A DNA stretch of 64,000 nt from positions 226,144 through 290,143 of the forward strand of contig JBBSXN010000005.1 of the NCBI GenBank assembly GCA_038045765.1, written 5' to 3'. The position numbers and the translations under genes were made by a program. Under the pieces are notes generated by a model. It was not told the DNA's origin, ran no database searches, and saw only the letters and a list, made by a program, of their open reading frames with translations. Positions 4,208-39,879 of this stretch are shown in pieces. Position 1 is the stretch's first letter. Every line of letters begins with the position of its first letter. The DNA comes from Nanobdellota archaeon (GTDB lineage Archaea; Nanobdellota; Nanobdellia; Pacearchaeales; GW2011-AR1).

Positions 4208-4298
4208 CTTAAAACTTAAACCGAGAGATATTTAATTTCTCCGGTGTAGCCTTTCTCACCTAGATAATGTTTATTAGGCTGTTTCAGTAGTTAAAATT

Positions 4299-15074: not shown

Positions 15075-18000
15075 ATGATGCAAAAGAGGGCATTGAGTTA
15101 TTTATTTTTTAGCTTCGTCGCTGTTTTACTTTTAGTTTCAGTTGTGTCTGCTGTATGGTATAATCCTAATACTTGGTTTGAAAGTAAAAATAACGTTAGA
15201 TTAAGTCCTCCTGCTGAAAATAGTATTTTTGTTAATGCTGGTTACCTTGGACAATTAAATGATACCACTGCCCCGTATTCTTTTTCTCCTGGAGATGGAA
15301 ATGATTTTACTTTTTCTTTACAATTTAATAGTGCTTCTGGCGTCACTATACAGCGTATGAGTTTTTCTCATACAGGTTATACCAATGATGAGTATTGGAG
15401 AACTTATGGAAACCTTGCGAGTGTTTATCCATTAGTAATATTTGATTCTTCTGGAAATAAAATAAATAACGTTATGGTAGAGCCAGTTTTGACAGTGAGT
15501 TCCGGCGTACAAAATTATAGATTCTATATTCAACCAGGATACAATATATTTATGGGTGGTGCTTTAACTATTATTTTGAGTAATGGAGATGCAGTAACTC
15601 TTAATATTCCTGCAGGTGTTGGACAGACAGTTAGTTATGGAACATATGGTCAAGGCGGAGGAGGAAATCCAAATGCATGTACCTCATTTACATATGGTGA
15701 TTGGACTCCAGCAACATGTTCATATGGAAGTCAACAAACTAGAACTGTGACTGGTTCTCCGGCTGGATGCACTGGTGGAAGTCCTGAAGGAAGTTCAAGA
15801 ACTTGTCCAACCTGCACAGATAGTGATGCAGACTCGACACATCTTACTGGTTTGAACTTTGGTGTTTTTGGTACAGCAACCTATTACGCTGGAATAAGTC
15901 AGAGTGATTATTGTGGTAGCCCTTCAGCTGGACATGCAAATATATTATTTGAGTCTTATTGCAGACCAAGCGATGGAACTCCATCTACTGAATATTATTC
16001 TTGTGAGTATGGATGTGCAAGTGGAAGATGTTTAGATGCTCCTGTTGTTGCTTCTTGTACTGATTTGAATGTCACCACGAAGGCTTTGATTAATAGTAGA
16101 TTTGTTTATAATTCTGCTACTGGAAAATGGGCTGATAGCGATGGAGATTTGCTTCATTTGAATAGCAATGATTGGGTGAATAAGAGCCAATATGTAATCC
16201 TAGTTGCTGACAATGGAAGACAAGGCATTTATGAAATTACACAACTTACAAATAGTTCTTCTACTACTATTCCGAGTGATGATGAAATAACTTTGAAGGA
16301 TATGTCAACTGGGGCTTCAACAACTGCTAAAGCTATCACTGAAGGTGCTGGAAATATAACTCTGCTAGGAGCAAGTTATCAGTATAATTATAGAGGAACA
16401 CAAATTATCCCAGAGAGATCTAGACAAGTTAAGTTTAATTCTATGAAAGATTATTCTTCTTGTAGTATTTATACAGCGCCGACTTGTACTGATAGCGATG
16501 GTGGATTGAATTATAATGTTAAAGGATATACTAATGGAACAGATGCTAATGGGAACAAAGGTATTGCTACAGATACATGTGTTGATTCTTCTCCTGCAGG
16601 TTCTGTTGTGATGGCAGGTCCTGATTTAGTTGAAGTTTATTGTGATAACTCTCTTGCGAGTGAAAGAAGAACAACTTGTCCGAATGGATGTTATGATGGG
16701 GCTTGCGTTTATGGGGCTAATCAAGAAATTAGTTTGACTAATGTAAATAATATTGCTAATTTTAATCTTGGTAATGATTTAATGAAGGTTAAGTTACTTG
16801 CTGCTACAGATGTTTCTGCAACTATTGAGATTATTGATGGTCAAGAAGGTGTTGGTGCAGAAATAACTGAAGGAACTTCCAAAGTCATTGGAGGAGTTAA
16901 TGTTTATCTTGTCAGTGTTGATGAAAATACTGCACTTAATAGTATAAGTGCAGTCGTAGTTTTATCCTTAGAGCAAGTTTGTAAGGAATATATAGCAGAT
17001 ATAAAGAATCCTTCTGACTTCATCAAGAGTGGTTTGGCATTTGAATTGGATGGAAATGGAAGTTATACTGGTTCTGAGTGGGTTAAAGGTGGAAGCGGAT
17101 ATAAGGAATATTCTTATGATGCTAATTATGCTAACTGGAGAAATAACCATGATGGTAAATCTTATTACTTTGGCAAGACTGTGAAAGTGTTTGATGATGT
17201 TTCTTTTGATGTTAAGAAAATATTTGATGAGATTATTGAATCTGGTTTATGTGTAGAAAGAGAGTTTAATGGTGAATCTGCTTATATTTGTGCTTATAAT
17301 GGCTTAACAGGATCTAATGATTATAATTCTATAATTTGGTTTAATGATAATGTAATGGTTGTTGTTGATGTGGCTATTTGGGCTAAGGCAGTAAGTAACT
17401 CCGATATTAATGAGATTAATGACAAGAACTTGAATTCATTGGTAAGAGATATACAAAATAATCAGTATAAAGATATTAGTGAGAATTTTGAGTTAGATAG
17501 TGTGTTTAATTCAATTGTTGGAGATGATTTGCAATTGTGTTCATCAGATGTTTCTAATGATGGTGGATTTACCTTTGGAGCTTATTGCAAGATAGAACCG
17601 GTTGTGTGTCCTGAATATGGAAGACAGGTTGAAAAGTGTTATCGTTATGTAAATGGTAAAGAAGTTGTTAATGAGAAACAACTTTATTGTTCTCCTGGAG
17701 TATGTTCGGGATGTATGGTTCCTAGATGGATGGGATATGATTTTGCTGGAAGCAAGACTGAAAGCGTTTGTATTCCTTATGGAACAAGATTAGCTAATTC
17801 TCAAGATTCAGGTTCTGAGAGAATTTATGAAGGGTATTATACTGAAGGAGATAAGGAATACCTTAATTTGACTATATTTGATACAAGTTCAGGTTATTTG
17901 GATTTAGATATTGATGGTGCTGTGTTTAAGGGAGAGATATATGAATCAGCTATAGTCGATGCTGGCGAAATAATATTTACAGTTAAGGAAATATTTACTT

Positions 18001-18362
18001 CTGAAGAAGAAGGAGATAATGATGCGGAAGGATATATTGAAATAAGTATCGTTGAGAGCTTTGATGCTTACTGTAAGTATGATGGTGATTTGTATGAGCA
18101 GAAGGGTGATGATGCTGAGTGTCAGAATAACTATGAATGTTCAAGTAATGAGTGTAGGACAGGACAATGTGTAAATACTTATGTTGGTGTTTCACAGAAT
18201 ACGAATATACTTGTAAAGATAATATGTAGAATTGTTAATATTCCTCCATTTGGAGATGAGGATAGTTACAATCAATGCTTGTTAGAGTATGCTGGAGGAA
18301 GCGACGGAGGAACAAGTTCAGGTGGTTCTAATGGTGGGGGAAGCGGTGGATCTTCCGCTTAA
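15075..18362 (+). CDS. giant secreted protein (1095 aa), paralogue 1: signal peptide, conserved N-terminal domain, TSP1-like 4-Cys module, conserved C-terminal Cys module, Gly/Ser tail
   Basis: The signal peptide and leader MQKRALSYLFFSFVAVLLLVSVVSAVWYNPNTWF is shared with 29348 and 32696. ACTSFTYGDWTPATCSYGSQQTRTVTGSPAGCTGGSP is one 4-Cys module. CQNNYECSSNECRTGQC lies near the C-terminus. The probable true start is 15078. Confidence 0.7.
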   Translation: MMQKRALSYLFFSFVAVLLLVSVVSAVWYNPNTWFESKNNVRLSPPAENSIFVNAGYLGQLNDTTAPYSFSPGDGNDFTFSLQFNSASGVTIQRMSFSHTGYTNDEYWRTYGNLASVYPLVIFDSSGNKINNVMVEPVLTVSSGVQNYRFYIQPGYNIFMGGALTIILSNGDAVTLNIPAGVGQTVSYGTYGQGGGGNPNACTSFTYGDWTPATCSYGSQQTRTVTGSPAGCTGGSPEGSSRTCPTCTDSDADSTHLTGLNFGVFGTATYYAGISQSDYCGSPSAGHANILFESYCRPSDGTPSTEYYSCEYGCASGRCLDAPVVASCTDLNVTTKALINSRFVYNSATGKWADSDGDLLHLNSNDWVNKSQYVILVADNGRQGIYEITQLTNSSSTTIPSDDEITLKDMSTGASTTAKAITEGAGNITLLGASYQYNYRGTQIIPERSRQVKFNSMKDYSSCSIYTAPTCTDSDGGLNYNVKGYTNGTDANGNKGIATDTCVDSSPAGSVVMAGPDLVEVYCDNSLASERRTTCPNGCYDGACVYGANQEISLTNVNNIANFNLGNDLMKVKLLAATDVSATIEIIDGQEGVGAEITEGTSKVIGGVNVYLVSVDENTALNSISAVVVLSLEQVCKEYIADIKNPSDFIKSGLAFELDGNGSYTGSEWVKGGSGYKEYSYDANYANWRNNHDGKSYYFGKTVKVFDDVSFDVKKIFDEIIESGLCVEREFNGESAYICAYNGLTGSNDYNSIIWFNDNVMVVVDVAIWAKAVSNSDINEINDKNLNSLVRDIQNNQYKDISENFELDSVFNSIVGDDLQLCSSDVSNDGGFTFGAYCKIEPVVCPEYGRQVEKCYRYVNGKEVVNEKQLYCSPGVCSGCMVPRWMGYDFAGSKTESVCIPYGTRLANSQDSGSERIYEGYYTEGDKEYLNLTIFDTSSGYLDLDIDGAVFKGEIYESAIVDAGEIIFTVKEIFTSEEEGDNDAEGYIEISIVESFDAYCKYDGDLYEQKGDDAECQNNYECSSNECRTGQCVNTYVGVSQNTNILVKIICRIVNIPPFGDEDSYNQCLLEYAGGSDGGTSSGGSNGGGSGGSSA

Positions 18363-21300: not shown

Positions 21301-21857
21301 CTGATATAATTATCTGTAATGATGATAAAGATTGTGATGATTTGAATGATGATACTGTTGATACATGTATTAATCCTGGCACTGTTGAAAGTTATTGCAG
21401 AAATGAAGGTGGATCTGGAAAGACTTGCACTGATAGTGATGGATTTGATATTACTGCACTTGGAAATGTGAATTATGATGGTGCTGTTTATAATGATGAG
21501 TGTTTAAGCGAGAAAGAAATATTGGAATACACTTGTGCTAGTTCTGGTTGGTTTAGCAGTGAGAAGGAAGTTAAAGCAAATAATAGAGAGTGTCAGTATT
21601 CATGTAGTGGAGGAAAGTGTGTCGATCAGGATAAGAATGTGCAGAGAGTATGTTCTGATAATGATGTTAGTAATAAATTGGATGTATATGGGGCTGTTTT
21701 GTTCAAAGGAGATGAATACAAAGATTCATGTGTTGAATCTGGATTAAGTGTAAAACAGTATTTCTGCGTTGATGACAAGTTAAGGAATTTTGTAAAGAGA
21801 TGTGCAAATGGGATGAGATGTATAAGTGGAAGTTGTCAGTATATTCCATCTGCTTAG
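18369..21857 (+). CDS. secreted metzincin-type zinc metalloprotease-like protein (1162 aa) with Cys-rich C-terminal modules
   Basis: N-terminal signal peptide. HELGHNFGVLH (19419-19451) matches HExxHxxGxxH. The C-terminus carries CQYSCSGGKCVD and CANGMRCISGSCQY modules. The gene starts 7 nt after the 15075 gene, which suggests an operon. Confidence 0.65.
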   Translation: MKSSYYILFSLIALFAFVSLSFFVSAVYQNDFNSFDNDLKNNINHSNFIDLNRDLYKISSEEISLTSRVASIFGVGKAVEKRNRLVAESLERKEAMIDLAEENPGLFLSQAIPEEEQNEKFEDVKENLEKETSQEGTLLIMENPHFHDPVNVNHEGMDNFNYFLDTKDERYNLKFADGSAPGAFSGSRVKVSGVELGDYLATSSAEASGFEVVESSPPIRAENYGVQKIAIIITKAPGDEDYDLPFIESHMQKINDYYNEVSYGRASLEWDVYGQYDVEGSGYVSITPEIDLDINFSKYSRIISIDERNCWGCAGIGIWSHSTNEGELNISETWVKPVIFQSSNYYSVIGHELGHNFGVLHANNLRCGDKYIDDFDKCISYEYGDHFDIMGSNIYSFETGHINSLYKETITWLGSNEIVEVSSDGIYTLNAFENLSDRTSLKIPRIFDEFRNGERFYYLEYRTPVGQDSFISNTQTQNGPQVRIDKYYSGWGGGGDSQLLDMNPGIYPRNVGISVGNVFFDSASNVEIRTLEVNSKNATVQVKVSNKTCIRRAPTFNIYPHSISGTLHETFYYSFELINNDESICPAKEIYLNNSNREVSFYMESYPSYISSSPDYPALIASGEKIEGVIMLYPNYFSNGGELSIDILNAESGSMYASQNLEYHVIPANSEPVSFAGEDKARKFFYVSNFFGNGYYLIDEDGKVYRRGSTRFTTDNVKEFPFGNNIKTAFIDGGESIVILDSDNKFYEGGRNIISRINKFDKMQIDNDLPYSYHNVQDIDIYESIYDNYNSIRNLLILLDDGYVFASSDIIDRDSCITWDGRRDLEREDESHAIALLPWNDFNKPDGGIYSLETIGYYVLSKDGTVYGCGDVNISYTHFNQPLPADLGTEDRTAVAFALDQEKGIVMVDSYGEVYTSGTLTHQGSPSFGQNIARDIQILPSNVDDGEEGVSGEDVAGYGILKGTGEIISCSEGRGCGTDIIICNDDKDCDDLNDDTVDTCINPGTVESYCRNEGGSGKTCTDSDGFDITALGNVNYDGAVYNDECLSEKEILEYTCASSGWFSSEKEVKANNRECQYSCSGGKCVDQDKNVQRVCSDNDVSNKLDVYGAVLFKGDEYKDSCVESGLSVKQYFCVDDKLRNFVKRCANGMRCISGSCQYIPSA

Positions 21858-25506: not shown

Positions 25507-26565
25507 ATGCTAACAAGCAAACAGATGGAAGAAGTTAGGGAGCATTTGAATAAGGCAGGAAATCCTGTTTTTTACTTTGATAATGATGCTGATGGGTTGT
25601 GTAGTTTTCTCCTTTTGAGTAGGTTTATTGGAAGAGGAAAAGGAGTAGCTGTAAGAAGTTATCCTAATCTAGATAAAGGATATGCTAGGAAAGCTCAAGA
25701 GTTAGGGGCAGATTATGTTTTTGTTTTGGATAAGCCAGTATTAAGTGAAGAATTCGTAGGAGCTATTGCTGAGATGAATTTACCCATGGTGTGGATAGAT
25801 CATCATGATGTAGATAATAAGGATTATTCTAAAATACATGAAAATTTCTTTGTTTATAATCCTGCTAAGAATAATGGTAAGGATAAAAGTAGCGAACCAG
25901 TAACTTATTTATCTTATAAGATAAGTGAGAGGAAAGAGGATATGTGGATAGCTGTTATGGGGTGTATTGCAGACCATTACATGCCCGATTTTGCTGATGA
26001 TTTTGGAAAGAAAAATTCTGAATTATGGGGGAAAGTTAAAGAGCCATTTGATGCTTATTTTGGAACTGAAATAGGAAAGATTGCTCAGGCTTTGAATTTT
26101 GGACTAAAAGATAGCATAACTAACGTTGTAAAGATGCAAAACTTTCTTTTAAAATGTAATTCTCCTAGTGAGGTGTTGGAAGAAGTAAAAGAAAATACTC
26201 TTTTTAGAAAGAAATATTCTGAGTTGAAGAAGAAATATGATTCTTTGCTAGAAGAAGCAGAGGAAAAATTAGATGGTAAAATACTTTTCTTTGATTACGG
26301 TGGTGAATCTAGTATGAGTGCTCAGCTTTCAAATGAACTTTCTTATAGACATAAGAATGCTTATGTTGTCGTAGCTTACAGAAATGGAGGAGTTGTAAAT
26401 ATTTCTATTAGGGGAAAGAATGTAAAAAAAATACTAAGCAATATATTAAATGGATTTGAAGGGGCTTCTGGTGGAGGGCATGAAGATGCTGTTGGAGCAA
26501 GAGTTAAAACTGAAGATTTAAAAAGATTTGAGGAAACTTTTAGAGAGGAGATAGGAAAGAAATAA
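25507..26565 (+). CDS. DHH-family phosphoesterase (NrnA/RecJ-like)
   Basis: Motifs FYFDNDADGLCS (DxD) and WIDHHD (DHH) are present, with a DHHA1-like C-terminus ending in GGGH. Confidence 0.6.
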   Translation: MLTSKQMEEVREHLNKAGNPVFYFDNDADGLCSFLLLSRFIGRGKGVAVRSYPNLDKGYARKAQELGADYVFVLDKPVLSEEFVGAIAEMNLPMVWIDHHDVDNKDYSKIHENFFVYNPAKNNGKDKSSEPVTYLSYKISERKEDMWIAVMGCIADHYMPDFADDFGKKNSELWGKVKEPFDAYFGTEIGKIAQALNFGLKDSITNVVKMQNFLLKCNSPSEVLEEVKENTLFRKKYSELKKKYDSLLEEAEEKLDGKILFFDYGGESSMSAQLSNELSYRHKNAYVVVAYRNGGVVNISIRGKNVKKILSNILNGFEGASGGGHEDAVGARVKTEDLKRFEETFREEIGKK

Positions 26566-27605
26566 TGAAGAAAAATGAATTAGAGATTGAGGCTTTTGGA
26601 AGAGTTCAAGGAGTAGGTTTTAGACTTACTGTTGAGGCCCATGCTAAGAAAAAAGGACTAACTGGTTTTATTTTCAATAGAGATATAGGGAGTGTAATTA
26701 TATTAGTTCAGGGTGAAAAGAAAAAAATAGAAGATTTTCTTGTTTGGTTGCAGACAAATCCTGGTTTTTCTAGAATCGATAGTCTGCAGTATGGTTGGAG
26801 GGCGAATATTAAAGTTTATGATGATTTCAGAATAATTAGAAAGGGTAATTTAATATCTGAACAAGCTAGAAATTTTTATAATTTGGGAAAATACATTTTA
26901 GGAAAGAAGATAGTAAAAGTTCCTAAACATGTATCTATAATTCCTGATGGGAATAGAAGATGGGCTAAAAGACAAGGAATGCATTCTGAATTTGGACATT
27001 ATAAAGCAATAAATGTTCAACATATGTTAGATATATTTCATGAAGCGCAGAATATTGGAATTAAGTACTTAAGTTTTTGGGGATTTTCAACAGAAAATTG
27101 GAAGAGAAATAAAATTGAAGTTAAAATGCTCTTCAAATTGTTTTTTGAATTTGCTGATTTGTTTAGAAATAGTGATTTAGCTGATAAAGTAAGATTCAAA
27201 CATATTGGAAGGAAAGACAGGTTGCCTAGTAAACTAATTTTAGAGTTAAATAAATTGGAAGAAGAAACACAAAATAATTCAGAACTGACTTTTCTTCTTT
27301 GTCTTGATTATGGTGGAAGAGATGAGATTGTTAGAGCGGTAAATAAGATGATTAAAGATGGAAAGAAAAAGATTAGTGAAAATGATTTGAATAACTATCT
27401 TGATACTGCTGGAGTTCCTGATGTAGATTTGATAATAAGAACAAGTGGAGAGTGTAGAACTTCAGGATTTATGCCTTTTCAAGCAGTTTATGCTGAATTG
27501 TGCTTTATTCAAAATGATTTTCCTGATTTTACTGCTGATGATTTAAGAAAAGCTGTTGAGTGGTATAATGGAAGAGATAGAAGATTTGGTGGGAATAGCA
27601 AGTAG
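26565..27605 (+). CDS. uppS: acylphosphatase / cis-prenyltransferase (undecaprenyl/dolichyl diphosphate synthase) fusion protein
   Basis: The N-terminal ~90 aa form an acylphosphatase fold (EIEAFGRVQGVGFR...GFIFN). The remainder is a UPPS-type cis-IPTase (HVSIIPDGNRRWAKRQG ... RTSGECRTSGFMPFQ). Confidence 0.75.
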   Translation: MKKNELEIEAFGRVQGVGFRLTVEAHAKKKGLTGFIFNRDIGSVIILVQGEKKKIEDFLVWLQTNPGFSRIDSLQYGWRANIKVYDDFRIIRKGNLISEQARNFYNLGKYILGKKIVKVPKHVSIIPDGNRRWAKRQGMHSEFGHYKAINVQHMLDIFHEAQNIGIKYLSFWGFSTENWKRNKIEVKMLFKLFFEFADLFRNSDLADKVRFKHIGRKDRLPSKLILELNKLEEETQNNSELTFLLCLDYGGRDEIVRAVNKMIKDGKKKISENDLNNYLDTAGVPDVDLIIRTSGECRTSGFMPFQAVYAELCFIQNDFPDFTADDLRKAVEWYNGRDRRFGGNSK

Positions 27606-27723: not shown

Positions 27724-28170
27724 TTAAGTGCAAGGCTTTATTTCTTTTCTATCTAATTCACAGCTCGATACTGAAATAATTAATTCTCCTGCCTCAAAGG
27801 TTGAGGGTGCTAGATTATATAATTTAGATTCTCCTTGTTCTGGTAACTTGCAATTTGCACATGAACCTCCGACCTGCCAGCGCTCTTTTTTGTTTTCAAT
27901 TACATGTGTGAAATCTATACTTGATATTTGCTCAGTGTTGATATTTCTTTTTATTGTTGTTTTAATTTCATTGTTTACTGAATTGTAGCAGGCACTTTCA
28001 ATTTTAAGAGCCTGATTTATTTTTAAATCTAAGCAGGAGCTTTCAGGAGAAAGCTGGACTGATTTTACTGATTTAATTACATAAGTAGATATTATAGTCA
28101 CAGCTATAATGCTTACGAGTATAATTAGTGTGGTTGCAATTACACTTGATAGCGCTTTTTTATTCATCAT
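27724..28170 (-). CDS. archaeal type IV pilin-like protein (class III signal peptide)
   Basis: N-terminus MMNKKALSSVIATTLIILVSIIAV matches the archaeal pilin consensus (K-[GA]-[LI]-S-P-V-I-A-T...). Confidence 0.5.
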   Translation of the reverse strand: MMNKKALSSVIATTLIILVSIIAVTIISTYVIKSVKSVQLSPESSCLDLKINQALKIESACYNSVNNEIKTTIKRNINTEQISSIDFTHVIENKKERWQVGGSCANCKLPEQGESKLYNLAPSTFEAGELIISVSSCELDRKEIKPCT

Positions 28171-29315
28171 TCTATTTTACAAGGCCTCCCATCTATATTA
28201 TCAATTTGTAAAGTGGCTATCTTCTTGTCTAGTGTTTTATCATATATTTCAAGCGTCTTTGCTGATTCTAGAGTAGGTATTCTGATATATAACTCTCCTT
28301 CGTAATTGTATGTCTCTCCAGAAATTTCTTCTTCTCCTGATTGTTGTGAATCGGTGAATATTAATTCAGGATTGAAAGAATCTTCCGCTAGTGTTTCAAA
28401 ATTTTCATTTAAAATATTAAATGAGAAAGAACCTTCACCATTTTTACCAGTACATCCTTGCTCTATATGTCTATCGTTAATTGTTAAAGAACCAGAAGAA
28501 TAATTTGCTGATATTAGATAGTAAAATTGATTTTCACAATTTGTTTCTGATTGAATTGCATTTCCAGTTATTGTTTTTCCTGAGCTTGTTTTTATTTTAC
28601 TTTCTATTAAAAATTCATTGAATTTTCCAAGACTTGTTGAATAGAGAGTTTTCATTAATCCAGAGTCTATTGAACGGTAATAATTGCTTTCTGAACAGCC
28701 TTGAAAACAGCCCTCATTTAATTCATTGAACTCTGAGCAGTCTTTTACACAATTTTTTACATTTCTAGGTAAGTTTGCAGGAGTATATTCTTCAGCAAGG
28801 TTTGCAAACGAATGACTGAATTCATGTGTAATAACTGATTTTGGATTTTTTGTGTTTATACTCATCACATTAAGATAAGAAGAGCTTCTTATTCTTTCTT
28901 GGTCTTCATTTAAAACAAAAATATAATCATTTGGACAGGCACTCGCCTTTCTTATTAAATCTCTTGAGTAGCAGTATAATGCTATTTCTTTATAGTATTC
29001 ACATTCTATTTTCTCATCTATGTAAAAGACATTAAATGATTCTTTTAATTTATTCAGCGGAGAAGTTGATAATAAGTAATCTATATATTCCTTAGTTTGA
29101 TTTTCTGATGCGAAAAATAATAGGTTTATTGATGCGGATGGATTGCTGTAGAGTTGATTACAGGTTTCTTTAGTTTCTGGGCTCAGATTTGTTGGATAAA
29201 AAAAGTAAATTGCTAACCCTATTATAATTAATAGACCTATAATTGAAGAAATTATAATTGACTTGTTTTCCATTGATTCTTTAGAATAAACTGACTTAAA
29301 TAGTTTATTAGACAA
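28167..29315 (-). CDS. membrane-anchored secreted protein with HExxH zinc-binding motif
   Basis: N-terminal TM segment. The motif is HEFSHSFANLAEEY. The ORF overlaps the pilin gene by 4 nt. Confidence 0.45.
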   Translation of the reverse strand: MSNKLFKSVYSKESMENKSIIISSIIGLLIIIGLAIYFFYPTNLSPETKETCNQLYSNPSASINLLFFASENQTKEYIDYLLSTSPLNKLKESFNVFYIDEKIECEYYKEIALYCYSRDLIRKASACPNDYIFVLNEDQERIRSSSYLNVMSINTKNPKSVITHEFSHSFANLAEEYTPANLPRNVKNCVKDCSEFNELNEGCFQGCSESNYYRSIDSGLMKTLYSTSLGKFNEFLIESKIKTSSGKTITGNAIQSETNCENQFYYLISANYSSGSLTINDRHIEQGCTGKNGEGSFSFNILNENFETLAEDSFNPELIFTDSQQSGEEEISGETYNYEGELYIRIPTLESAKTLEIYDKTLDKKIATLQIDNIDGRPCKIE

Positions 29316-29347: not shown

Positions 29348-32300
29348 ATGCAAAAGAGGCTAGTGAATTATTTATTTTTTAGTTTTGTTGCTGTTTTACT
29401 TTTAGTTTCAGTTGTTTCTGCTGTTTGGTGGAATCCTAGTACTTGGTTTAATGGAAGAGGAATAACTGGAAATCCAGTAGCTAGTGCAACAGATTATACT
29501 TCTAATTTAGTAGCTTACTGGAAGTTTGATGAGGCTTCTTATTCTGGTGGCTCTGGTCAGGTAAAAGATTATCTTGGATTTAGTAATGGCACTCCAGTTA
29601 GTTCTCCAACTATTGTACCAGGATTGAAAGGTAATGCTGTTAGATTTACTGGTGCTGGTGGTCAAAAAATATTAATTTCCACTACTCCTACTAAATTTAA
29701 TTTAGGTAGTTTTACTCTATCTGCATGGGTTAAGACAAGTGACGCTGGAACTGGTAGAAGGAGAATATTTAGTCAGCAAAATAGTGATTATTATGGTATT
29801 GCTTTAAATGGTAATAATCTTGAGTGTTTCTCCTCTTTAGACTTCGGAGTTACACAATACAATAGCCCTTCGACTGCTGTTCTAAATAATAATCAATGGC
29901 ATCATGTATCTTGTGTAAGAAATACTGGTATTAATAAATTCTTATTATATATTGATGGGGTAAATGTTAAAAATAGCTCTATTACTGGTTCTTCTAGCTA
30001 TGCTATGGGTGCTGGAGGCATTTCCATAAGCCAATATCTTGGCGGAAATTCTGAAATATTTACTGGGCTTATTGATGAGCTTAGAGTTTACAATACTGCT
30101 TTAACTAGTACTCAAATCAATCAAGTGTATGATTTTGCTAAGCCTGCTAGTAGTGCTCAAGCATGTACTTCATTTACATATTCGGAATGGAGTGTTTGTT
30201 CTACTTTAGGACAGCAAGCAAAAACAATTCTTACTAGAACTCCAGATGGATGTACTGGAGGAAGTCCTGAAGCTTTGACAAGGAGTTGTACTTATTATGA
30301 TCCTAATAGAATTTATGTTAATTATACTGTTTCTAGTATGATTTCACCTTATTATTTAACTAATGCAGTTGTTAATTTATCTTATGCTGGAGCAAGTTAT
30401 CCATGTAATTTTATCTCAAAACCTACTAGTTCATTTCCTAATTATGGTATTTATAGGTGTAATGTTCCAAGACTTGGTCAAACAGGAATTTATTATACAT
30501 TATCTTCTTCTGCTCCAGGTTATGCTCAAGATATTGCTTCTTTAGGAAATTCTTTTAATGCTGGAGAATATACTGCTTCAATTATTTTGAATCCATTACC
30601 TCCAACTTGTACATCATTTACATATTCAGACTGGAGTACATGTACATCAGCAGGTTCTCAGACAAAGACAATTCTTACTAGCAACCCATCTGGGTGTTCT
30701 GGTGGAACACCTGAAGCTTTGACACGGAGTTGTCATCCAGACGGAGGTATTGCTACTGCTAGCTTAAGTGGATTGACTGCTATATATGATGGAACACCAA
30801 AATCTATTAGTGTAACAACTAACCCTCCAGGTATATCTACAATAGTGACTTATAATGGTGTAACTACTCCTCCAACTGCGGCAGGTTCTTACGCTGTCAC
30901 AGTAACTGCTAGCCCTCCAACTTTAGCAACTGCTCCTATTTTTACAATGAATACAATGGCAGCATTAGTTATCAATAAAGCAGATCAAACTATTGTATTT
31001 CCCACTATTTCTCCACAAGTTACAGCTGTTCCTTTCGGTTTGAGTGCTACCTCTAGTTCAGGATTACCTGTAAGTTTTAATATTCAAGCAGATCTTGTTT
31101 CAGGTTCTGGAACAATTATAAATAATGTCCTTACTGCTACTGAAGCAGGAGTTGTTACTGTTCGTGCTAGTCAAGCAGGAAATAATAATTATAATCCTGC
31201 TCCTTTTATTGATAAAACAATTTCAGTGAGTTCTCCTTTTAAAACAGTGCAGATTGGTGAGTGGGCTAATGTTGGAGATTCTATACAACTTGCTGGTGCT
31301 ACTTTAGCTAAAGTTCAAAGTATTTCTAGTTCATCAAGTGCAAGCTTTTTTGATAATGATAATGTAGTCTTTCATCAAACAACTTCTGGTGGACCTATAA
31401 CTGGAAAAACTTTTAATGCTATTTCTAAAGGGATAGCTTCTACTCATAATGGTCCTGATTCTAATCATCTTCCTTATTTTGAAGGCGGAATAAATGGTAA
31501 GTTCTATAATGTAGAATATAGAGGAGTTACAGGTTCAACTGCAAATTCTCCTCAAGCTAGACTAGTAGCTATTGTTTGCACTGGAGGAGATTGGATTGGA
31601 ACTGTTAGTCCTTGCACTCCTAGTGGAAATAAAACTATAGAATGGACAAAATCTCCTGCTTATTGTGATTCAACTTTGGCTGGAAGTGTAAATCATCCTG
31701 CGAGTGAAGTTGTTACTTGTACTTATGTTCCTCCAGTTTCTACTCCTATTGCTAATAGTACCTTCCTTTATTATATCAAGAATCAAAGTGGTGCGTCAAT
31801 TCCAGGAGTACAATATAATTTGAAGAATTCAACTGGCGGAGTGTTTGATGATAATTGTATATTTGATGTTTCATCAGGATTGATGTGTGTTAATTTATTC
31901 GCAGGTAATTATTTGTTGAATGTTTCCGCTTCTAATTACTTTTCACAAGTCTTGTCTTTATCTTTAACTCAGAATTATAGAGGTCCTAATTATCCAAATA
32001 ATATTATTACTTTGTCTGGTGCTAGTACTGGAACTACCACTTCTACAATTGGCGCGAATGTTGCTGGATGCAGTGATACAGATGCTGATGCTGCTAATCT
32101 TGGTGGAGTTGATTATAATGAACGAGGAACATTTACTGCTCCTGCAGAGAGTAGTTGGACTGTTGCTCAGAGGACTGATTATTGTGTTAGTGCTATGAGA
32201 TTAGCTGAATATTCATGCGATCCTGCACCTGCTGGTTTTGATTATAATGGTGTTGAAGTAGATTGTCCTGGTGGATGTTCTGAGGGAAGATGTATCGGTT

Positions 32301-32653
32301 CCGGAACTGGTGGAGAAGGAACAACTACTGGAACTGGTGGTGGAACTACAACTACAACTACAACTGGAACTGGCGGATCAGGTACGACTGAAGCAACTAC
32401 TGGAGGAGTTGTTTGTGCAGATGGATGTTCATTAGAAAGTGGACAGTGCGTTCCTCTTGGATATAGAATTGGTGGAAAATATTGTGATGTGAGCAAGAGT
32501 TTGGTAACTTATAAAGCCGATTCAGCTGATTGTGAAAATAATTTTGAATGTGGAAGTAATGTTTGCGTCTCAAATAAATGTATTGAGGCAGGATTTTTGC
32601 AGAAGATTAGTGATTGGTTTAGTAACCTATTTGCAACATCTTCAGCATCTTAA
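29348..32653 (+). CDS. giant secreted protein (1101 aa), paralogue 2: LamG domain, two TSP1-like 4-Cys modules, MBG/Ig-like domains, Thr/Gly linker, conserved C-terminal Cys module
   Basis: Shared leader MQKRLVNYLFFSFVAVLLLVSVVSAVWWNPSTWF. LamG_3 region (LVAYWKFDE...LRVYNTALTSTQINQVY). Modules ACTSFTYSEWSVCSTLGQQAKTILTRTPDGCTGGSPEALTRSC and TCTSFTYSDWSTCTSAGSQTKTILTSNPSGCSGGTPEALTRSC. YDG/MBG-like segment (LTAIYDGTPKSISVTTNPPGISTIVTYNG...AGSYAVTVTAS). C-terminal CENNFECGSNVCVSNKC. Confidence 0.7.
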   Translation: MQKRLVNYLFFSFVAVLLLVSVVSAVWWNPSTWFNGRGITGNPVASATDYTSNLVAYWKFDEASYSGGSGQVKDYLGFSNGTPVSSPTIVPGLKGNAVRFTGAGGQKILISTTPTKFNLGSFTLSAWVKTSDAGTGRRRIFSQQNSDYYGIALNGNNLECFSSLDFGVTQYNSPSTAVLNNNQWHHVSCVRNTGINKFLLYIDGVNVKNSSITGSSSYAMGAGGISISQYLGGNSEIFTGLIDELRVYNTALTSTQINQVYDFAKPASSAQACTSFTYSEWSVCSTLGQQAKTILTRTPDGCTGGSPEALTRSCTYYDPNRIYVNYTVSSMISPYYLTNAVVNLSYAGASYPCNFISKPTSSFPNYGIYRCNVPRLGQTGIYYTLSSSAPGYAQDIASLGNSFNAGEYTASIILNPLPPTCTSFTYSDWSTCTSAGSQTKTILTSNPSGCSGGTPEALTRSCHPDGGIATASLSGLTAIYDGTPKSISVTTNPPGISTIVTYNGVTTPPTAAGSYAVTVTASPPTLATAPIFTMNTMAALVINKADQTIVFPTISPQVTAVPFGLSATSSSGLPVSFNIQADLVSGSGTIINNVLTATEAGVVTVRASQAGNNNYNPAPFIDKTISVSSPFKTVQIGEWANVGDSIQLAGATLAKVQSISSSSSASFFDNDNVVFHQTTSGGPITGKTFNAISKGIASTHNGPDSNHLPYFEGGINGKFYNVEYRGVTGSTANSPQARLVAIVCTGGDWIGTVSPCTPSGNKTIEWTKSPAYCDSTLAGSVNHPASEVVTCTYVPPVSTPIANSTFLYYIKNQSGASIPGVQYNLKNSTGGVFDDNCIFDVSSGLMCVNLFAGNYLLNVSASNYFSQVLSLSLTQNYRGPNYPNNIITLSGASTGTTTSTIGANVAGCSDTDADAANLGGVDYNERGTFTAPAESSWTVAQRTDYCVSAMRLAEYSCDPAPAGFDYNGVEVDCPGGCSEGRCIGSGTGGEGTTTGTGGGTTTTTTTGTGGSGTTEATTGGVVCADGCSLESGQCVPLGYRIGGKYCDVSKSLVTYKADSADCENNFECGSNVCVSNKCIEAGFLQKISDWFSNLFATSSAS

Positions 32654-32695
32654 CTTATGGAAAATATTTATATATCTGCAAGAAATGTTTCTTTA

Positions 32696-35194
32696 ATGCA
32701 AAAGAGATTTCTTAATTATTTATTTTTTAGTTTCGTTGCTGTTTTACTTTTAGTTTCAGTTGTTTCTGCAGTTTGGTGGAATCCAAATACTTGGTTTGAA
32801 GGAAGAGGAATAACTGGGAATGTTGTATCTCCTAGTCAAATTTTTGTTAAAGTAGCTTATTTAGGGAAGATAGATAATAAGGCTGCTCCTTATTCTTTTT
32901 CTCCTGGTGCTGGGAATGATTTTAGTTTTTCTTTACAATTTGATAGTCCTTCCGGTCTTAAAATACAACGAATGAGTTTTACTCGCACTAGTAGTGGCGA
33001 GTATTGGAGAACTTACGGATCTAATGACCCTATTAATGTTTACCCAATTGTAATTTTTGATTCTAATAATCATAGAATAAACAATGCTATGGTTGAGCCA
33101 GCTTTAATTGTCCCTTCTGGCTTGCAAAATTATACTTTTTATTTTGAACCAGGAAGTCCGAATTTTGTAGGAGGAACTTTAACAATTCATTTACAGAATG
33201 AGGTTACCCCAATAACTATTAATGTTCCGGCAGGAGTTGGACAGATAATTACATATGGTTCATATGATTCACATGTATGTACTTCATTTACTTATAGTGC
33301 TTGGACTCCTGCAATATGTTCACTTGGAAGTCAGCAGACTAGAACTGTAACTTCAAGAAGTCCAGCAGGATGTACGACTGGAGTAAGTCCAGTATTAACT
33401 CAAGGTTGTAATGTTCCCACATGTACTTCATTTACATATTCAGATTGGGGTGTATGTCAATCTAATAATCAACAAGCCAGAACTGTGACTGCAAGCAGTC
33501 CGGCTGGATGCACTGGTGGAAGTCCATTATTATATAGGGGTTGCACTCCTTTTGTTTTACCTGCTAATGATAATTTTGTTAATGCTATTTTGATAAATAA
33601 TTATGCTTCAAGTACTGGTACTGTTAATGTAAATTTGAATGGTGCGGGAACTGAGAGTGGTGAAAATAACTTAGCAGGAAACACTGTTTGGTATAGATTT
33701 AATGCTCCTGGGGCAGGTAATTTAAATATTAATTATAATTCTCCTACTGCTGGTGGAATGACTTTAGATTCTAATTTGAGATTATATTCTGGAAGTAGCT
33801 TGTCTTCTCTTATTTTATTGAGAGAGAATTCAATGGTTAATCATGGTCAGACGGTTAGTTTAAATGTTGCTCAACCTGGTAATTATTATTTACAGTTTGG
33901 AAGAAGTGCAGGTAATTTTGGAGCAGGTACTGCTACATTCACTTATGCTTTTCAATCTCTGGCTTCTGGAGCATGTATAGATACTGATGTTAATGCTACT
34001 TATCCTGATGGATTGAATTATTATCTTACTGGTTCTGCTAGCGGTTCTAGTGGGATAGGTTCTAGTGATTATTGCGGTGCAGGATATTATTCAAATACAG
34101 TCTATGAATCTTATTGTAGAGCTTCTGATAATTCAGTCACTACCGCTTATTATAATTGTCCTACTGGAACTGTTTGTACCAATGGTGCTTGTTCAGTTGG
34201 AAGTGCAGTAGTTTCACCTACTCCAGTAGCTTGTACATCATTTAATGTTGGTTCATATAATGCTTGTAGTGGTGGTCAGCAGACTAGAAGTGTTACTGGA
34301 GTTCCTGCAGGGTGTGTTGGAGGAGTAACGCCTCCGGCTAGTTCTCAAGCTTGTTCAGAGCCTAGTATTCCAACTTGTACTGATGCAGATTGGACTTATG
34401 TTGTTGTTGCTCCATCTACTTGTTCTGCTGGTTATTCAAAAGAAAGAAGATGGAGTAAAACTGGAAATTGTGAAGGAGGAATAACTCATGATACCTCTGA
34501 ATATTTACCTTGCAGTTATCCTTATGGTCCTCTTCCTTGTTCTTCATATACATATGGTGAGTGGACTCCTGCTAATTGTGCTGTTGGAAGTCAACAAACT
34601 AGAACAGCATTAGGGTCTTATGGAGGAGGTTTAGGAGGAGTTTATTATGCACAGTGCATTGGAGGAAATCCTGCAGCCATTTCAAGAATTTGTCCTGAAA
34701 ATACTCAGACTGTTACTGATACTAGTTGTTCTTATGGTGATTCTCCTGTTTGTTCAAATGATGAGATTACATATTCAAATTCATGCAATGCTGTAGCTGC
34801 TGGTGCGACTGTCTCTTGTCAGGGTGAGTGTCCTTGTCCTGCTGGAAATCCTGCTCCTAGCCCTGGTGTCGTTCCTGTAGCTGTTCCTGTTCCTACAGTT
34901 ATAACTCCTCCGACCGGTACTGGAATTGCTCCAGTAGTTTCTCCGACAGGTACTTGTTCTAGTGGATGTGAGTTAGATAATAATTGTGTAGATTTTGGAC
35001 ATAGATCGAGTGCAAAGTATTGTGCTTTGTCAGGCATGGTTGACTTTAAGGATATTGGTGTAAGTTGCGATAATAGTTTTGAATGTTCAACTAATTCATG
35101 TATTTCTGGAAAATGTTCCGAAGCGAATATAATTCAGAATATTGTTAAATGGTTTAAAGATAATTGTCCTTCATTTATTTGTTCTGTTAAATAA
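32696..35194 (+). CDS. giant secreted protein (~832 aa from this start), paralogue 3: conserved N-terminal domain, four TSP1-like 4-Cys modules, conserved C-terminal Cys module
   Basis: The ORF track begins at 32657. Homology to the paralogues (MQKRFLNYLFFSFVAVLLLVSVVSAVWWNPNTWF) and a TATA box at 32666-32675 place the start at ATG 32696. Modules VCTSFTYSAWTPAICSLGSQQTRTVT, TCTSFTYSDWGVCQSNNQQARTVT and others. C-terminal CDNSFECSTNSCISGKC. Confidence 0.65.
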   Translation: MQKRFLNYLFFSFVAVLLLVSVVSAVWWNPNTWFEGRGITGNVVSPSQIFVKVAYLGKIDNKAAPYSFSPGAGNDFSFSLQFDSPSGLKIQRMSFTRTSSGEYWRTYGSNDPINVYPIVIFDSNNHRINNAMVEPALIVPSGLQNYTFYFEPGSPNFVGGTLTIHLQNEVTPITINVPAGVGQIITYGSYDSHVCTSFTYSAWTPAICSLGSQQTRTVTSRSPAGCTTGVSPVLTQGCNVPTCTSFTYSDWGVCQSNNQQARTVTASSPAGCTGGSPLLYRGCTPFVLPANDNFVNAILINNYASSTGTVNVNLNGAGTESGENNLAGNTVWYRFNAPGAGNLNINYNSPTAGGMTLDSNLRLYSGSSLSSLILLRENSMVNHGQTVSLNVAQPGNYYLQFGRSAGNFGAGTATFTYAFQSLASGACIDTDVNATYPDGLNYYLTGSASGSSGIGSSDYCGAGYYSNTVYESYCRASDNSVTTAYYNCPTGTVCTNGACSVGSAVVSPTPVACTSFNVGSYNACSGGQQTRSVTGVPAGCVGGVTPPASSQACSEPSIPTCTDADWTYVVVAPSTCSAGYSKERRWSKTGNCEGGITHDTSEYLPCSYPYGPLPCSSYTYGEWTPANCAVGSQQTRTALGSYGGGLGGVYYAQCIGGNPAAISRICPENTQTVTDTSCSYGDSPVCSNDEITYSNSCNAVAAGATVSCQGECPCPAGNPAPSPGVVPVAVPVPTVITPPTGTGIAPVVSPTGTCSSGCELDNNCVDFGHRSSAKYCALSGMVDFKDIGVSCDNSFECSTNSCISGKCSEANIIQNIVKWFKDNCPSFICSVK

Positions 35195-38097: not shown

Positions 38098-39879
38098 ATG
38101 AGTTTTAAAAGGAGGGCATTGCATAAAAATGCTTGGAAGACTTGGTCTTTATATTTATTAGCAGGATTATTTATTGTTGCGTTTCTCTTTTCACAACAAG
38201 GTGTTTTTTTAAGTCCTGATTGCGAGGATAATGATGATAGTTGTGTTCATGAGGGAGATGAAGATTATATTTCTTGGGAAATTCCTGGAGATGCTTATGA
38301 AGGTGTTCAAGACATAGAAGAGAGTATGAATGATGATCCTGAGACTGAAGATGTTATAGAGGGATTTAAGTTTGGTGGTGATTCTGAAGCACTAGATAAA
38401 GAAGCAGCCGATGCTGCTAAAGAAGCTCAAGAAGATGTTAAAGAATGTGTGGCTGATGCTGATGGAGATCCTGCTAAGCAAAATGAGTGTGGTGAAATTG
38501 CAGCTGCTGCTGGCGGATCTGCTAGTTGTAGTCCTAGTAGTAATCCTTATCCTAAGGTTATAAGAGATTTAGTTACAGTTACTTTTACAGGAGGAATTAC
38601 TGGAGCGCCTTCTGATGAAGCGGTTAAGTCTACTCTTTTACAGAAAGCAGGAGAGCTTAGACAGGAGAATGTAAATGAACAAGAAGCGATAGCTAATGGT
38701 ATGAAATGTAAGGCGTCTACTAAATTTACTAGATGTGAAAAAGAAAATGGAAGAGTTTCTTATTCTATGAAAGTTGAACCACTTAAGAAAAGCGGTGAAT
38801 GTAAAATTCCTAGCGGTTCTGGTGATCAATCTCCAGCTAAGACGGATAAAACTGATTCTTTATCGGCATCAGGTAGCAATGAAGCAGATTGTATAAATAA
38901 ACTTGGAGATAAAGCTAAGGAGTGGGTTCAAGGTCTTAGTTATACTTGTAAGACTGGAAAAATAGGAGCTAATTTCTTTGGTAATGGTGGGACTAATTAT
39001 GGTGAGTGTAAACCTATATATGCTACCTTTGATCTCGATGGAGTTTTTGTTTTATCTCCTGGAAGTTTGGAAGCAGGAACATGTACTGGAAAAGCATCTT
39101 TTACTATTTCTTGTGGTGATGGTCCACTTGTAGAAGGAATTTCAGGAAAAGTTAGAATTTATCTGAAAGGTACATTCACTCATTCTTGTAAACCAATTTA
39201 TGACAAAGAGGCTACTATTGATGGTAGTTCTGGTAGTGGATCTGGTTCAGGATCTGGAAGTGGTGGCAGTAGCGGAGGAGGTTCGAGTGGAGGCACATCT
39301 GGTGGGGGTGGTTCTGCTCCTGAAACTAGTCCTGGAATAAAATCTCCTAGTAGTGATTCTTCAGATAGTTCAGACGCAAATAGTAATTCTGCTAATCCAG
39401 GTAGTGATAGTTCTCTAGCTTCTGGTGATGTTAGTCCATTAACAGATAATTCTAATAGTGCAAATCAAGATAGTAGTAATGATAATTCTAATAGTGCAAA
39501 TCAAGATAGTAGTAATGATAATTCAAACAGTTTAAGTGAGAGTAATGATGCAAATTCTGGTGAATTATCTCCTTTCTTTTCTGCAATTAAAAATGCACTC
39601 CAAGGCCTTAGCGGAGATAGTAAAGATGAAGGTGAGTTGGTGAGCGATAATAGCCAGACCAATTCCCAGAATAGCGATACTTCAAAGTCAAATAGTGCTA
39701 TTAATTTCAATAGCCTTACTAGTGTTAGTAATTCTGATGAAGAGATATTAAGTCCAACGTTAGCTTCAATTAACTATATACTTGAAATTATCAAGGGTGA
39801 AGATACGGAAGTTATAGGTATCTTTCAACCAGTTGAAAAGGCACTTGAAGATTTGCAAGAGTTTTTTGAGGGAAGTTAG
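38098..39879 (+). CDS. signal-anchored surface protein, mosaic family member B (A-like core, G/S-rich and Ser/Asn/Asp-rich repeat tail, conserved C-terminal 45 aa)
   Basis: MSFKRRALHKNAWKTWSLY leader is identical to member C. FLSPDCEDND...SGKVRIYLKGTFTHSC is the A-like core. The tail carries SGSGSGSGSG and DNSNSANQDSSN x2.5. The C-terminus SPTLASINYILEIIKGEDTEVIGIFQPVEKALEDLQEFF is shared with member D. Confidence 0.65.
   Translation: MSFKRRALHKNAWKTWSLYLLAGLFIVAFLFSQQGVFLSPDCEDNDDSCVHEGDEDYISWEIPGDAYEGVQDIEESMNDDPETEDVIEGFKFGGDSEALDKEAADAAKEAQEDVKECVADADGDPAKQNECGEIAAAAGGSASCSPSSNPYPKVIRDLVTVTFTGGITGAPSDEAVKSTLLQKAGELRQENVNEQEAIANGMKCKASTKFTRCEKENGRVSYSMKVEPLKKSGECKIPSGSGDQSPAKTDKTDSLSASGSNEADCINKLGDKAKEWVQGLSYTCKTGKIGANFFGNGGTNYGECKPIYATFDLDGVFVLSPGSLEAGTCTGKASFTISCGDGPLVEGISGKVRIYLKGTFTHSCKPIYDKEATIDGSSGSGSGSGSGSGGSSGGGSSGGTSGGGGSAPETSPGIKSPSSDSSDSSDANSNSANPGSDSSLASGDVSPLTDNSNSANQDSSNDNSNSANQDSSNDNSNSLSESNDANSGELSPFFSAIKNALQGLSGDSKDEGELVSDNSQTNSQNSDTSKSNSAINFNSLTSVSNSDEEILSPTLASINYILEIIKGEDTEVIGIFQPVEKALEDLQEFFEGS
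39445..39530 (+). repeat. 36-nt tandem repeat (gataattctaatagtgcaaatcaagatagtagtaat x ~2.4) encoding DNSNSANQDSSN
   Basis: Seen directly. Copies at 39445-39480 and 39481-39516, then a partial third copy. Confidence 0.7.

Follow-up and report, generated by a model that had tools for sequence, protein, structure and literature searches.

Three large secreted proteins encoded in the DNA stretch analyzed here (64 kb at full length, hereafter "the window"; GC [guanine-plus-cytosine] content of 32%), which comes from a Nanobdellota archaeon, share a module of ∼75 amino acids (aa) that consists of a core with eight Cys residues and a terminal amphipathic helix. This module is a previously unannotated domain: no Pfam or NCBIfam model covers it in the window proteins or in 106 family members, the most frequent curated families among these members (at most 5 members each) are all cargo domains, and no description of the module was found in the literature by keyword or by motif, including the tail sequence. 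The module itself, the family to which it belongs, its terminal position, and the amphipathicity of its tail are all observed directly, as are the signal peptides of its carriers and their lack of a transmembrane segment. The function tentatively favored here, at a little less than an even chance, is that of a disulfide-rich pedestal with an in-plane amphipathic membrane anchor, which would tether secreted proteins to the cell membrane. The three carriers, referred to below as paralogues A, B, and C, and their copies of the motif by which the module was recognized are as follows.

15075..18362, plus strand: paralogue A, a secreted Cys-rich protein of 1095 aa with a divergent, insertion-bearing copy of the module
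29348..32653, plus strand: paralogue B, a secreted multidomain protein of 1101 aa with the module at its C-terminus
29348-29422: signal peptide of paralogue B, an N-terminal hydrophobic segment
32696..35194, plus strand: paralogue C, a secreted multidomain protein of probably 832 aa with the module at its C-terminus
18120-18170 (A), 32531-32581 (B), and 35066-35116 (C), plus strand: the copies of the strict motif, 17 residues each

The first-pass annotation of this DNA had reported the Cys motif C[DEQ]N[NS][FY]EC[GS][ST]N.C[IVR][ST][GN][KQ]C in three otherwise divergent paralogues, and a six-frame translation of the whole window indeed contains exactly three matches to it, all of them in frame and near the 3′ end of a long plus-strand open reading frame (ORF) with an N-terminal signal peptide. 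The "KYC" that was said to precede the motif holds for two of the copies, the one in A having "AYC" instead. The hidden Markov model (HMM) of the family supports all three, matching the module of B over model positions 9 to 83 (E = 3e-32 for the ORF and 1e-31 for the module), that of C over positions 9 to 80 (E = 2e-25), and that of A over positions 30 to 68, which cover the second half of the core, the only part of this copy that is significant against the profile (E = 3e-11); no further ORF in the rest of the window scored below E = 0.05. The sharing of the module by A, B, and C is not due to chance.

The family was delineated by an exhaustive HMMER profile scan of 1.84 billion representative proteins (clusters at 50% identity), in which the two best window proteins scored E = 5e-35 and 5.6e-31. 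The scan yielded 2,738 cluster representatives at E ≤ 1e-3, 1,592 at E ≤ 1e-10, and 9 at E ≤ 1e-30, whereas word-indexed homology searches recovered little (1 and 15 matches). In the best 150 representatives, the median distance between the last Cys of the last core and the C-terminus is 19 residues (5th to 95th percentile, 18 to 24); it is 17 to 25 residues in 143 of the 150, and 140 of these 143 proteins with a C-terminal tail have 17 to 21 residues after the last Cys. A second sample consisted of 64 distinct module ORFs from other contigs, namely, 63 in loci from genomes of the GTDB database and that of locus L001, with the window and its Hainich duplicates (L002 to L004) left out. The profile match ends 0 to 3 residues before the stop in 61 of the 64, and since every one of the 64 has a stop codon, truncated contigs do not account for the terminal position. 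The first-pass annotation had taken a lack of bias toward C-termini as grounds for giving up its proposal of an anchoring or sorting domain; with 143 of 150 and 61 of 64 copies being terminal, the bias is very strong.

The tail follows the same rule. Two or more cores stand in tandem in 33 of the best 150 representatives, and the tail was found after none of the 35 internal tandem cores but after 146 of the 150 last cores; it is an element of the terminus and not of the repeat. A regular-expression scan of all locus ORFs for tails without a core returned a single, spurious match. Export is typical of the carriers: among the 58 locus ORFs with an intact 5′ end, 50 have an N-terminal hydrophobic signal segment and none shows a transmembrane-like segment at the C-terminus. 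Signal peptides and hydrophobic segments were called by a heuristic rather than by a dedicated predictor.

The Cys motif described initially is only the last third of the module. The core follows the pattern C-x2/3-C-x5/6-C-x-P-x-G-x-R-x5-[YF]C-x14/15-C-x-N-N-[FY]-E-C-x-S-N-x-C-x5-C; in an alignment of 34 sequences, seven of the eight Cys residues, the Arg, and one Asn are invariant and the Gly, the Glu, and the second Asn are conserved in at least 90%, the first Cys being displaced in part of the MAFFT family alignment. The start assigned to the module at 32470 fell in the right place but one base out of frame (the codon begins at 32471), and it does not mark the beginning of the module, which lies upstream at 32414 and adds to a core of eight Cys residues rather than five. 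The parts of the three window copies, all on the plus strand, are listed below.

32414..32581: B, eight-Cys core (CADGCSLESGQCVPLGYRIGGKYC…CENNFECGSNVCVSNKC), aa 1023-1078, placed by the family alignment, the HMM, and an AlphaFold2 model
32582..32632: B, linker and terminal amphipathic helix (IEAGFLQKISDWFSNLF), aa 1079-1095
32633..32650: B, polar extension ATSSAS after the helix, common to the related protein P0014
34955..35116: C, eight-Cys core (CSSGCELDNNCVDFGHRSSAKYC…CDNSFECSTNSCISGKC), placed by alignment and HMM
35117-35161: C, amphipathic helix SEANIIQNIVKWFKD
up to 35191: C, variant end NCPSFICSVK after the helix, with two extra Cys residues
17703..17789: A, segment that probably forms the first half of the core (CSGC-x18-CIPYGTR), its loop between the second and third Cys lengthened by a 12-aa insert, placed by MAFFT
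17790..18068: A, insertion of 93 aa that separates the conserved Arg from the [YF]C of the core and is predicted to be beta-rich (alignment and AlphaFold2)
18069..18170: A, second half of the core (YCKYDGDLYEQKGDDAECQNNYECSSNECRTGQC), placed by HMM and AlphaFold2
18171..18359: A, divergent tail with a 13-aa insert after the last Cys, then the amphipathic segment NILVKIICRIVNI, and then a 36-aa extension

The claim that the motif marks the extreme C-terminus is borne out in B and C and fails in A, where the motif ends 63 residues, and the profile match 60 residues, before the stop. As judged from the alignments, the copy in A is a divergent variant with insertions. Its first half was placed by MAFFT on the family columns C-x2-C…C-x-P-x-G-x-R, the signal of the HMM alone being weak (1.0 bit); its tail lacks W-F; and the extension after NILVKIICRIVNI has a Gly/Ser-rich end. 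P0163, a relative from Diapherotrites, has smaller insertions at the same three sites in the alignment. The tail of B, 23 residues past the last Cys, has W-F…L-F and lacks the K-[KR] pair, and that of C, 25 residues past the last Cys, follows the family pattern up to W-F-K-D and then diverges. The tails of A, B, and C are thus peripheral variants within the family.

In the 143 representatives with a C-terminal tail, the consensus after the last Cys reads [IV]-S-x-G-[LF]-[IL]-Q-K-I-[LI]-N-W-F-K-[KR]-L-F-G, followed by 0 to 3 residues and the stop (consensus tail peptide, SEGLIQKILNWFKRLFG), with conservation of 97% for the Trp, 97% and 96% for the two Phe residues, and 83% for the Gly. The amphipathic character that had been ascribed to the window tails is well founded, as their maximum 11-residue hydrophobic moments of 0.65 (B), 0.78 (C), and 0.74 (A) were reached by 1, 0, and 3 of 2,000 shuffled sequences, respectively; the family tail has a median moment of 0.79 and a median net charge of +2. 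On a helical wheel, the consensus shows one hydrophobic arc of 160 degrees (from 340 to 140 degrees) formed by W, L/F, L/I, I/V, F, I/L, F, and L/I/M, with Lys/Arg at both of its borders; the center of the polar face is occupied by the variable Q and N. A hydrophobic arc with Lys/Arg at its borders is the class-A arrangement of lipid-associating helices. Two family members weakly match the model for phenol-soluble modulin epsilon, an amphipathic helical peptide.

A known protein with a closely similar terminus is the low-molecular-weight penicillin-binding protein PBP5 (DacA) of Escherichia coli, which is attached to the outer face of the inner (cytoplasmic) membrane by an amphipathic anchor made up of its 18 C-terminal residues (PMC2909392). 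PBP5, like PBP6 and DacD, resembles the module carriers in being exported by the Sec pathway with an N-terminal signal peptide and in lacking a transmembrane segment; in both PBP5 and the family, the last ∼18 residues form an amphipathic helix, with a moment of 0.66 for the PBP5 tail (read from NC_000913) and a median of 0.79 for the family. The two tails have in common the pattern K-I-[IL]-[DN]-[YW]-[IF]-K-x-[LM]-F and the F-G end. Judged by helix length, hydrophobic moment, lack of a transmembrane segment, and export, the tail would belong to the PBP5-type class. PBP5 differs in showing no homology to the module carriers outside the tail and in carrying its helix on one enzyme family, whereas the module helix is always preceded by the eight-Cys domain and is found on dozens of unrelated cargoes; the module carriers, unlike PBP5, come from archaea with ether-lipid membranes.

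Structure prediction for the last 88 residues of B (AlphaFold2, on an alignment of 17 sequences) gave a mean predicted local distance difference test score (pLDDT) of 80, with the core at 87 to 93 and containing short strands, and a single helix at model residues 68 to 86 with a pLDDT of ∼57 to 65 that is not confidently docked on the core. In A, the second half of the core scored 93 to 95 and the first half 75 to 86, the 93-aa insertion was modeled as strands at a low pLDDT of 50 to 67, and a helix was placed at model residues 175 to 186. Fold and sequence matches to small disulfide-rich families were all nonsignificant (Foldseek E ≥ 1.4; Pfam E ≥ 0.07), and the module profile found nothing below E = 0.5 among the sequences of the PDB. 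The nearest structural matches, none of them significant, were cystine-knot toxins, LEAP-2, Dkk, and colipase. Knottins, the Dickkopf N-terminal/colipase group, and LDL-receptor class A (LDLa) domains resemble the module in size and Cys density; the C-terminal half of the module (C-x5-C-x3-C-x5-C) superposes on knottin toxins over 22 to 29 residues at 0.4 to 1.8 Å, and Dkk4 aligns with the module over 74 columns, both nonsignificantly. However, the knottin, Dickkopf/colipase, and LDLa families share neither the spacing of the eight Cys residues nor the P-x-G-x-R and N-N-[FY]-E-C-x-S-N motifs, and the core may represent a compact new disulfide-rich fold. Coordination of Zn by the Cys residues instead of disulfide formation was set aside, given that the proteins are exported and that thioredoxin/DsbA cargoes are present.

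The cargo domains joined to the module are diverse and include thioredoxin/DsbA folds, dockerin, CARDB, Laminin_G_3, and NHL/beta-propeller domains; two members, P0022 and P0124, exceed the Pfam gathering score for the S-layer "outer domain." Paralogue B itself contains Laminin_G_3 and MBG_3 domains (Pfam matches) in addition to Cys-rich repeats, and an identical copy of this protein is encoded on groundwater contigs from Hainich (well H41, 0.1-µm filtrates). Several copies may be present in one genome, as with the three in this 64-kb window or three loci in a single metagenome-assembled genome (MAG), and module genes can adjoin each other, as do B and C in the window and two genes in locus L010. 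A strong terminal bias and linkage to a wide range of unrelated extracytoplasmic domains would both be expected of an anchoring or sorting appendage, and that part of the first-pass proposal is supported in general form. The tail is not a wall- or S-layer-binding domain of a known type. The present proposal, which is drawn from the sequences, is a more specific one: the tail would be a PBP5-like in-plane amphipathic helix that follows a new Cys-rich domain.

The distribution of close relatives was examined by scanning one genome per GTDB species with two narrow peptide patterns of the typical subfamily, which cover close relatives only. The resulting 67 loci all come from low-GC archaeal MAGs (GC, 0.28 to 0.44) that are nearly all labeled as DPANN: Nanoarchaeota, Woesearchaeota, Pacearchaeota, and Nanoarchaeia. 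Aenigmatarchaeota and Micrarchaeota are represented by one record each, and a few records bear a generic archaeon label. Other family matches carry the names "Nanoarchaeota archaeon," "Candidatus Diapherotrites archaeon," or "hypothetical protein." Five third-party annotation bins (L016, L020, L025, L060, and L068) are titled "uncultured Methanosarcinales archaeon" but have GC values of 0.29 to 0.39 and encode module proteins of the DPANN type; these bins are suspected to be mislabeled.

In the proposed mechanism, A, B, and C would be Sec-exported surface proteins of a DPANN archaeon that end in a two-part retention module. The core (∼55 residues with eight Cys) is inferred to form four disulfides outside the cell, where it would make a rigid pedestal next to the membrane, in some proteins as tandem copies. 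The terminal helix of 13 to 15 residues, with the consensus G-[LF]-[IL]-Q-K-I-[LI]-N-W-F-K-[KR]-L-F-G-stop, would, after translocation, rest parallel to the surface within the outer leaflet of the cytoplasmic membrane, its Trp/Phe/Leu/Ile face immersed in lipid and its flanking Lys/Arg level with the head groups, tethering the protein in the manner of E. coli PBP5. This reading is the best supported one in view of the carriers, which are exported without a transmembrane anchor and include enzymes and S-layer-like proteins that need to be retained by a cell lacking an outer membrane. Both disulfide formation and membrane binding are predictions of the model.

Several observations weigh against the membrane-anchor reading. 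The conservation of the tail and its tightly fixed length exceed what a generic lipid-binding helix needs, so a protein partner is possible. The window copies depart from the cationic consensus: the tail of B carries a net charge of about −1 and lacks the K-[KR] pair, and that of A is strongly divergent, with another 36 residues after it. The separate, undocked helix in the model of B speaks for an anchor, but its low pLDDT may only reflect the shallow alignment of 17 sequences. No cultured organism carries the module. Finally, ∼4% of the representatives, as well as locus L054, have core and tail internally, with a further domain downstream, an arrangement seen in P0048, P0076, P0097, P0106, and P0127. 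In a minority subfamily (L054, positions 3982-7320; P0076, P0097, and P0106), the complete core and tail occupy a central position and a further Cys-containing domain (…WFKRLFGGKEAEILDCGGDTECWENAFKVCKPAK…) comes after them; the tail is therefore not obligatorily terminal.

Docking or oligomerization through proteins, in which the core and/or the helix would bind an S-layer lattice, a scaffold, or itself by helix bundling, so that the carriers would be displayed on a proteinaceous envelope and not on lipid, is unlikely, although both faces of the helix and several polar residues of the core (R, N, E, and N) are highly conserved. The tandem cores in 33 of the best 150 representatives recall the arrangement of many binding repeats, and the dockerin-containing members suggest a scaffold-based organization of the surface. 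However, S-layer-like proteins themselves carry the module, as would sooner be expected if it attached the layer to the membrane than if it bound to the layer; a stable coiled coil would normally call for a helix longer than 13 to 15 residues; helices of class A, in which Trp and Lys/Arg line the border between the polar and apolar faces, typically associate with lipid; and no conserved partner gene is found nearby.

It is distinctly unlikely that the module is a C-terminal sorting signal, its core and tail being recognized by a dedicated DPANN machinery that would cleave this signal and/or transfer the protein to a lipid, the S-layer, or another acceptor, as with archaeosortase/PGF-CTERM, sortase/LPXTG, or the folded C-terminal domain of type IX secretion. 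The search for a co-occurring processing enzyme, as suggested by the first-pass annotation, compared 624 ORFs from the 67 GTDB loci, L001, and the window and came out empty: no flanking family occurred in more than 5 of the 67 loci, so no candidate processing enzyme emerged. In this respect, the module differs from the archaeosortase, exosortase, and sortase systems, for which a cognate enzyme exists. Like the PGF-CTERM, PEP-CTERM, and LPXTG signals, it occupies the extreme C-terminus of many unrelated Sec substrates, several per genome, and shares with them S-layer-type cargo (PMC6098224); its tightly fixed distance to the stop and the unusual conservation of the tail, near-terminal Gly included, would also suit a signal of this kind. 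Substrates of sortases, exosortases, and archaeosortases carry a tripartite signal composed of a motif, a hydrophobic transmembrane domain, and a charged cluster (PMC6098224), and it is here that the likeness ends: the module is a folded Cys-rich domain without a signature motif, a hydrophobic transmembrane domain, or a terminal basic cluster. A transmembrane-like C-terminus was seen in none of the 58 locus ORFs and in none of the window copies, where the Kyte-Doolittle maximum over 19 residues within the last 45 is ≤0.59. As the first-pass annotation had correctly stated, the window C-termini have neither a PGF-CTERM nor an LPXTG motif nearby (no PGF within 45 residues and no LP.TG within 60). 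No NCBIfam sorting-signal model matches the 106 family members examined.

Accordingly, A, B, and C were rejected as archaeosortase substrates (no PGF and no transmembrane-like segment) and as sortase substrates (no LPxTG and no transmembrane segment). The C-terminal domain of the type IX secretion system of Bacteroidota resembles the module in being a folded domain of ∼80 residues at the extreme C-terminus of diverse secreted proteins. That domain is a beta-sandwich and is read by an outer-membrane machinery that archaea lack, whereas the module would be a disulfide knot with a helix; with no match between the two in Pfam or NCBIfam, a type IX-like domain was set aside for having the wrong fold and coming from the wrong domain of life.

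It is quite improbable that the module is directed at a host, with a knottin-like core and a cationic helix that inserts into the host membrane, fastening adhesins or enzymes there or perturbing the membrane. The resemblance to cystine-knot toxins, LEAP-2, Dkk, and colipase, the weak match to the phenol-soluble-modulin model, the adhesion-type cargoes (LamG, CARDB, dockerin, and NHL), and the DPANN lineage of the carriers, which are presumed episymbionts, are all in keeping with such a role. However, every one of the fold matches has E > 1, the housekeeping-type cargoes (thioredoxin/DsbA and S-layer-like) fit the cell's own surface better, and a protein inserted into a host membrane would be unattached to the cell that produced it unless it had a second anchor, none of which was seen. 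Still less credible is a generic Cys-rich spacer without any anchoring or sorting role, whose terminal position would merely be inherited or a product of domain shuffling. Other Cys-rich repeats do abound in the window proteins and the copy in A tolerates large insertions and a changed tail, but conservation across 2,738 clusters at 50% identity, the positional bias, and a tail found only after the last core (0 of 35 versus 146 of 150) are hard to explain without a function linked to the terminus.

The N-termini of the three window proteins are also similar to each other. Their signal peptides are almost identical (MQKR…YLFFSFVAVLLLVSVVSA, with a hydrophobic stretch of ∼19 residues and then VSA), and the likeness extends into the mature protein, MQKR..(Y)LFFSFVAVLLLVSVVSA being followed by VW(W/Y)NP(S/N)TWF (15075-15190 in A, 29348-29460 in B, and 32696-32810 in C; also in family members P0014 and P0114), which points to a conserved element beyond a generic signal peptide. 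The same alignment bears on the start of gene C. The ORF opens at an ATG at 32657 (845 aa), 4 nucleotides past the stop of gene B, yet the N-terminus aligns with A and B only from the MQKRF… ATG at 32696, which is likely to be the true start, as the first-pass annotation had chosen; because this is the start conserved among the paralogues, the 13 residues MENIYISARNVSL encoded between the two ATG codons are probably not translated.

Other Cys-rich elements occur in the same proteins. A second unannotated domain, C(T/S/I)D(S/T)D…(D)(Y/S)C…E(Y/S)(Y/S)C……C..GC..G.C, is found in A, B, and C and in the C-terminal ∼150 aa of the metzincin-like ORF at 18369-21857. The Cys units of that ORF had been taken for relatives of the module; against the module profile they score E = 12, and they are copies of this other repeat ("CTDSDG…C..GC..G.C"). 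L001 and many family members have the second domain as well, many of the latter beginning with it right after the signal peptide. Paralogues A, B, and C further contain a repeat of ∼40 residues, CTSFTYS(D/E/A)W..C...G.Q.(R/K)T……P.GC(T/S)GG.P….C, which has the look of a thrombospondin type 1 repeat but matches no Pfam model.

Elsewhere in the window, two otherwise unrelated plus-strand genes, 38098-39879 and 46302-47438, encode proteins with N-terminal hydrophobic segments whose last 79 residues are common to both (70% identity) and end in an acidic amphipathic tail, …IIKG(E/D)D(T/S)EVI(G/D)IFQP(V/I)EKAL(E/G)DLQ(E/N)FF…; by sequence comparison, this is a second, different shared C-terminal module. 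The minus-strand gene at 28167-29315, next to gene B and divergent from it, encodes a 382-aa protein with an N-terminal transmembrane or signal segment, 11 Cys residues, and an HExxH region that weakly resembles IgA peptidase M64 (E = 3e-4, short of the Pfam cutoff); a neighbor of this type is not conserved in other module loci. The plus-strand gene at 26565-27605 is a single ORF that is an apparent fusion of an acylphosphatase (PF00708) with a prenyltransferase of the undecaprenyl-diphosphate synthase type (PF01255), both domains being taken from precomputed Pfam matches on an identical gene.

A C-terminal amphipathic anchor is a known device; what is new is its packaging with an unannotated domain and its large-scale use in DPANN archaea. 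These archaea form a large and mostly uncultured radiation of tiny host-dependent cells whose biology turns on the cell surface, and their envelopes had not been analyzed according to a review (PMC6098224). If the tail is only a PBP5-like lipid anchor, as the membrane-anchor reading would have it, the case is one of tidy convergence between domains of life; if it is recognized by a partner, it points to a new sorting system. A bolder proposal of the latter kind, which is unlikely on present evidence, is that the module is the address tag of an undescribed DPANN surface-display system, with the …N-W-F-K-R-L-F-G terminus recognized by a dedicated partner. If so, that partner could be a processing enzyme, a component of the S-layer, or a component of the host membrane, the tail would be more than a passive lipid-binding helix, and the system would govern how DPANN episymbionts (Nano-, Woese-, and Pacearchaeota and their relatives) build their envelope and attach to their hosts. 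The anchor could serve for surface display or for raising localization probes, and the module is a sequence tag by which the DPANN surface proteome may be predicted from metagenomes. One portable C-terminal module on thousands of diverse secreted proteins, among them S-layer-like proteins, disulfide oxidoreductases, and giants of the adhesin type, offers a concrete handle on how DPANN archaea retain proteins at the cell surface.

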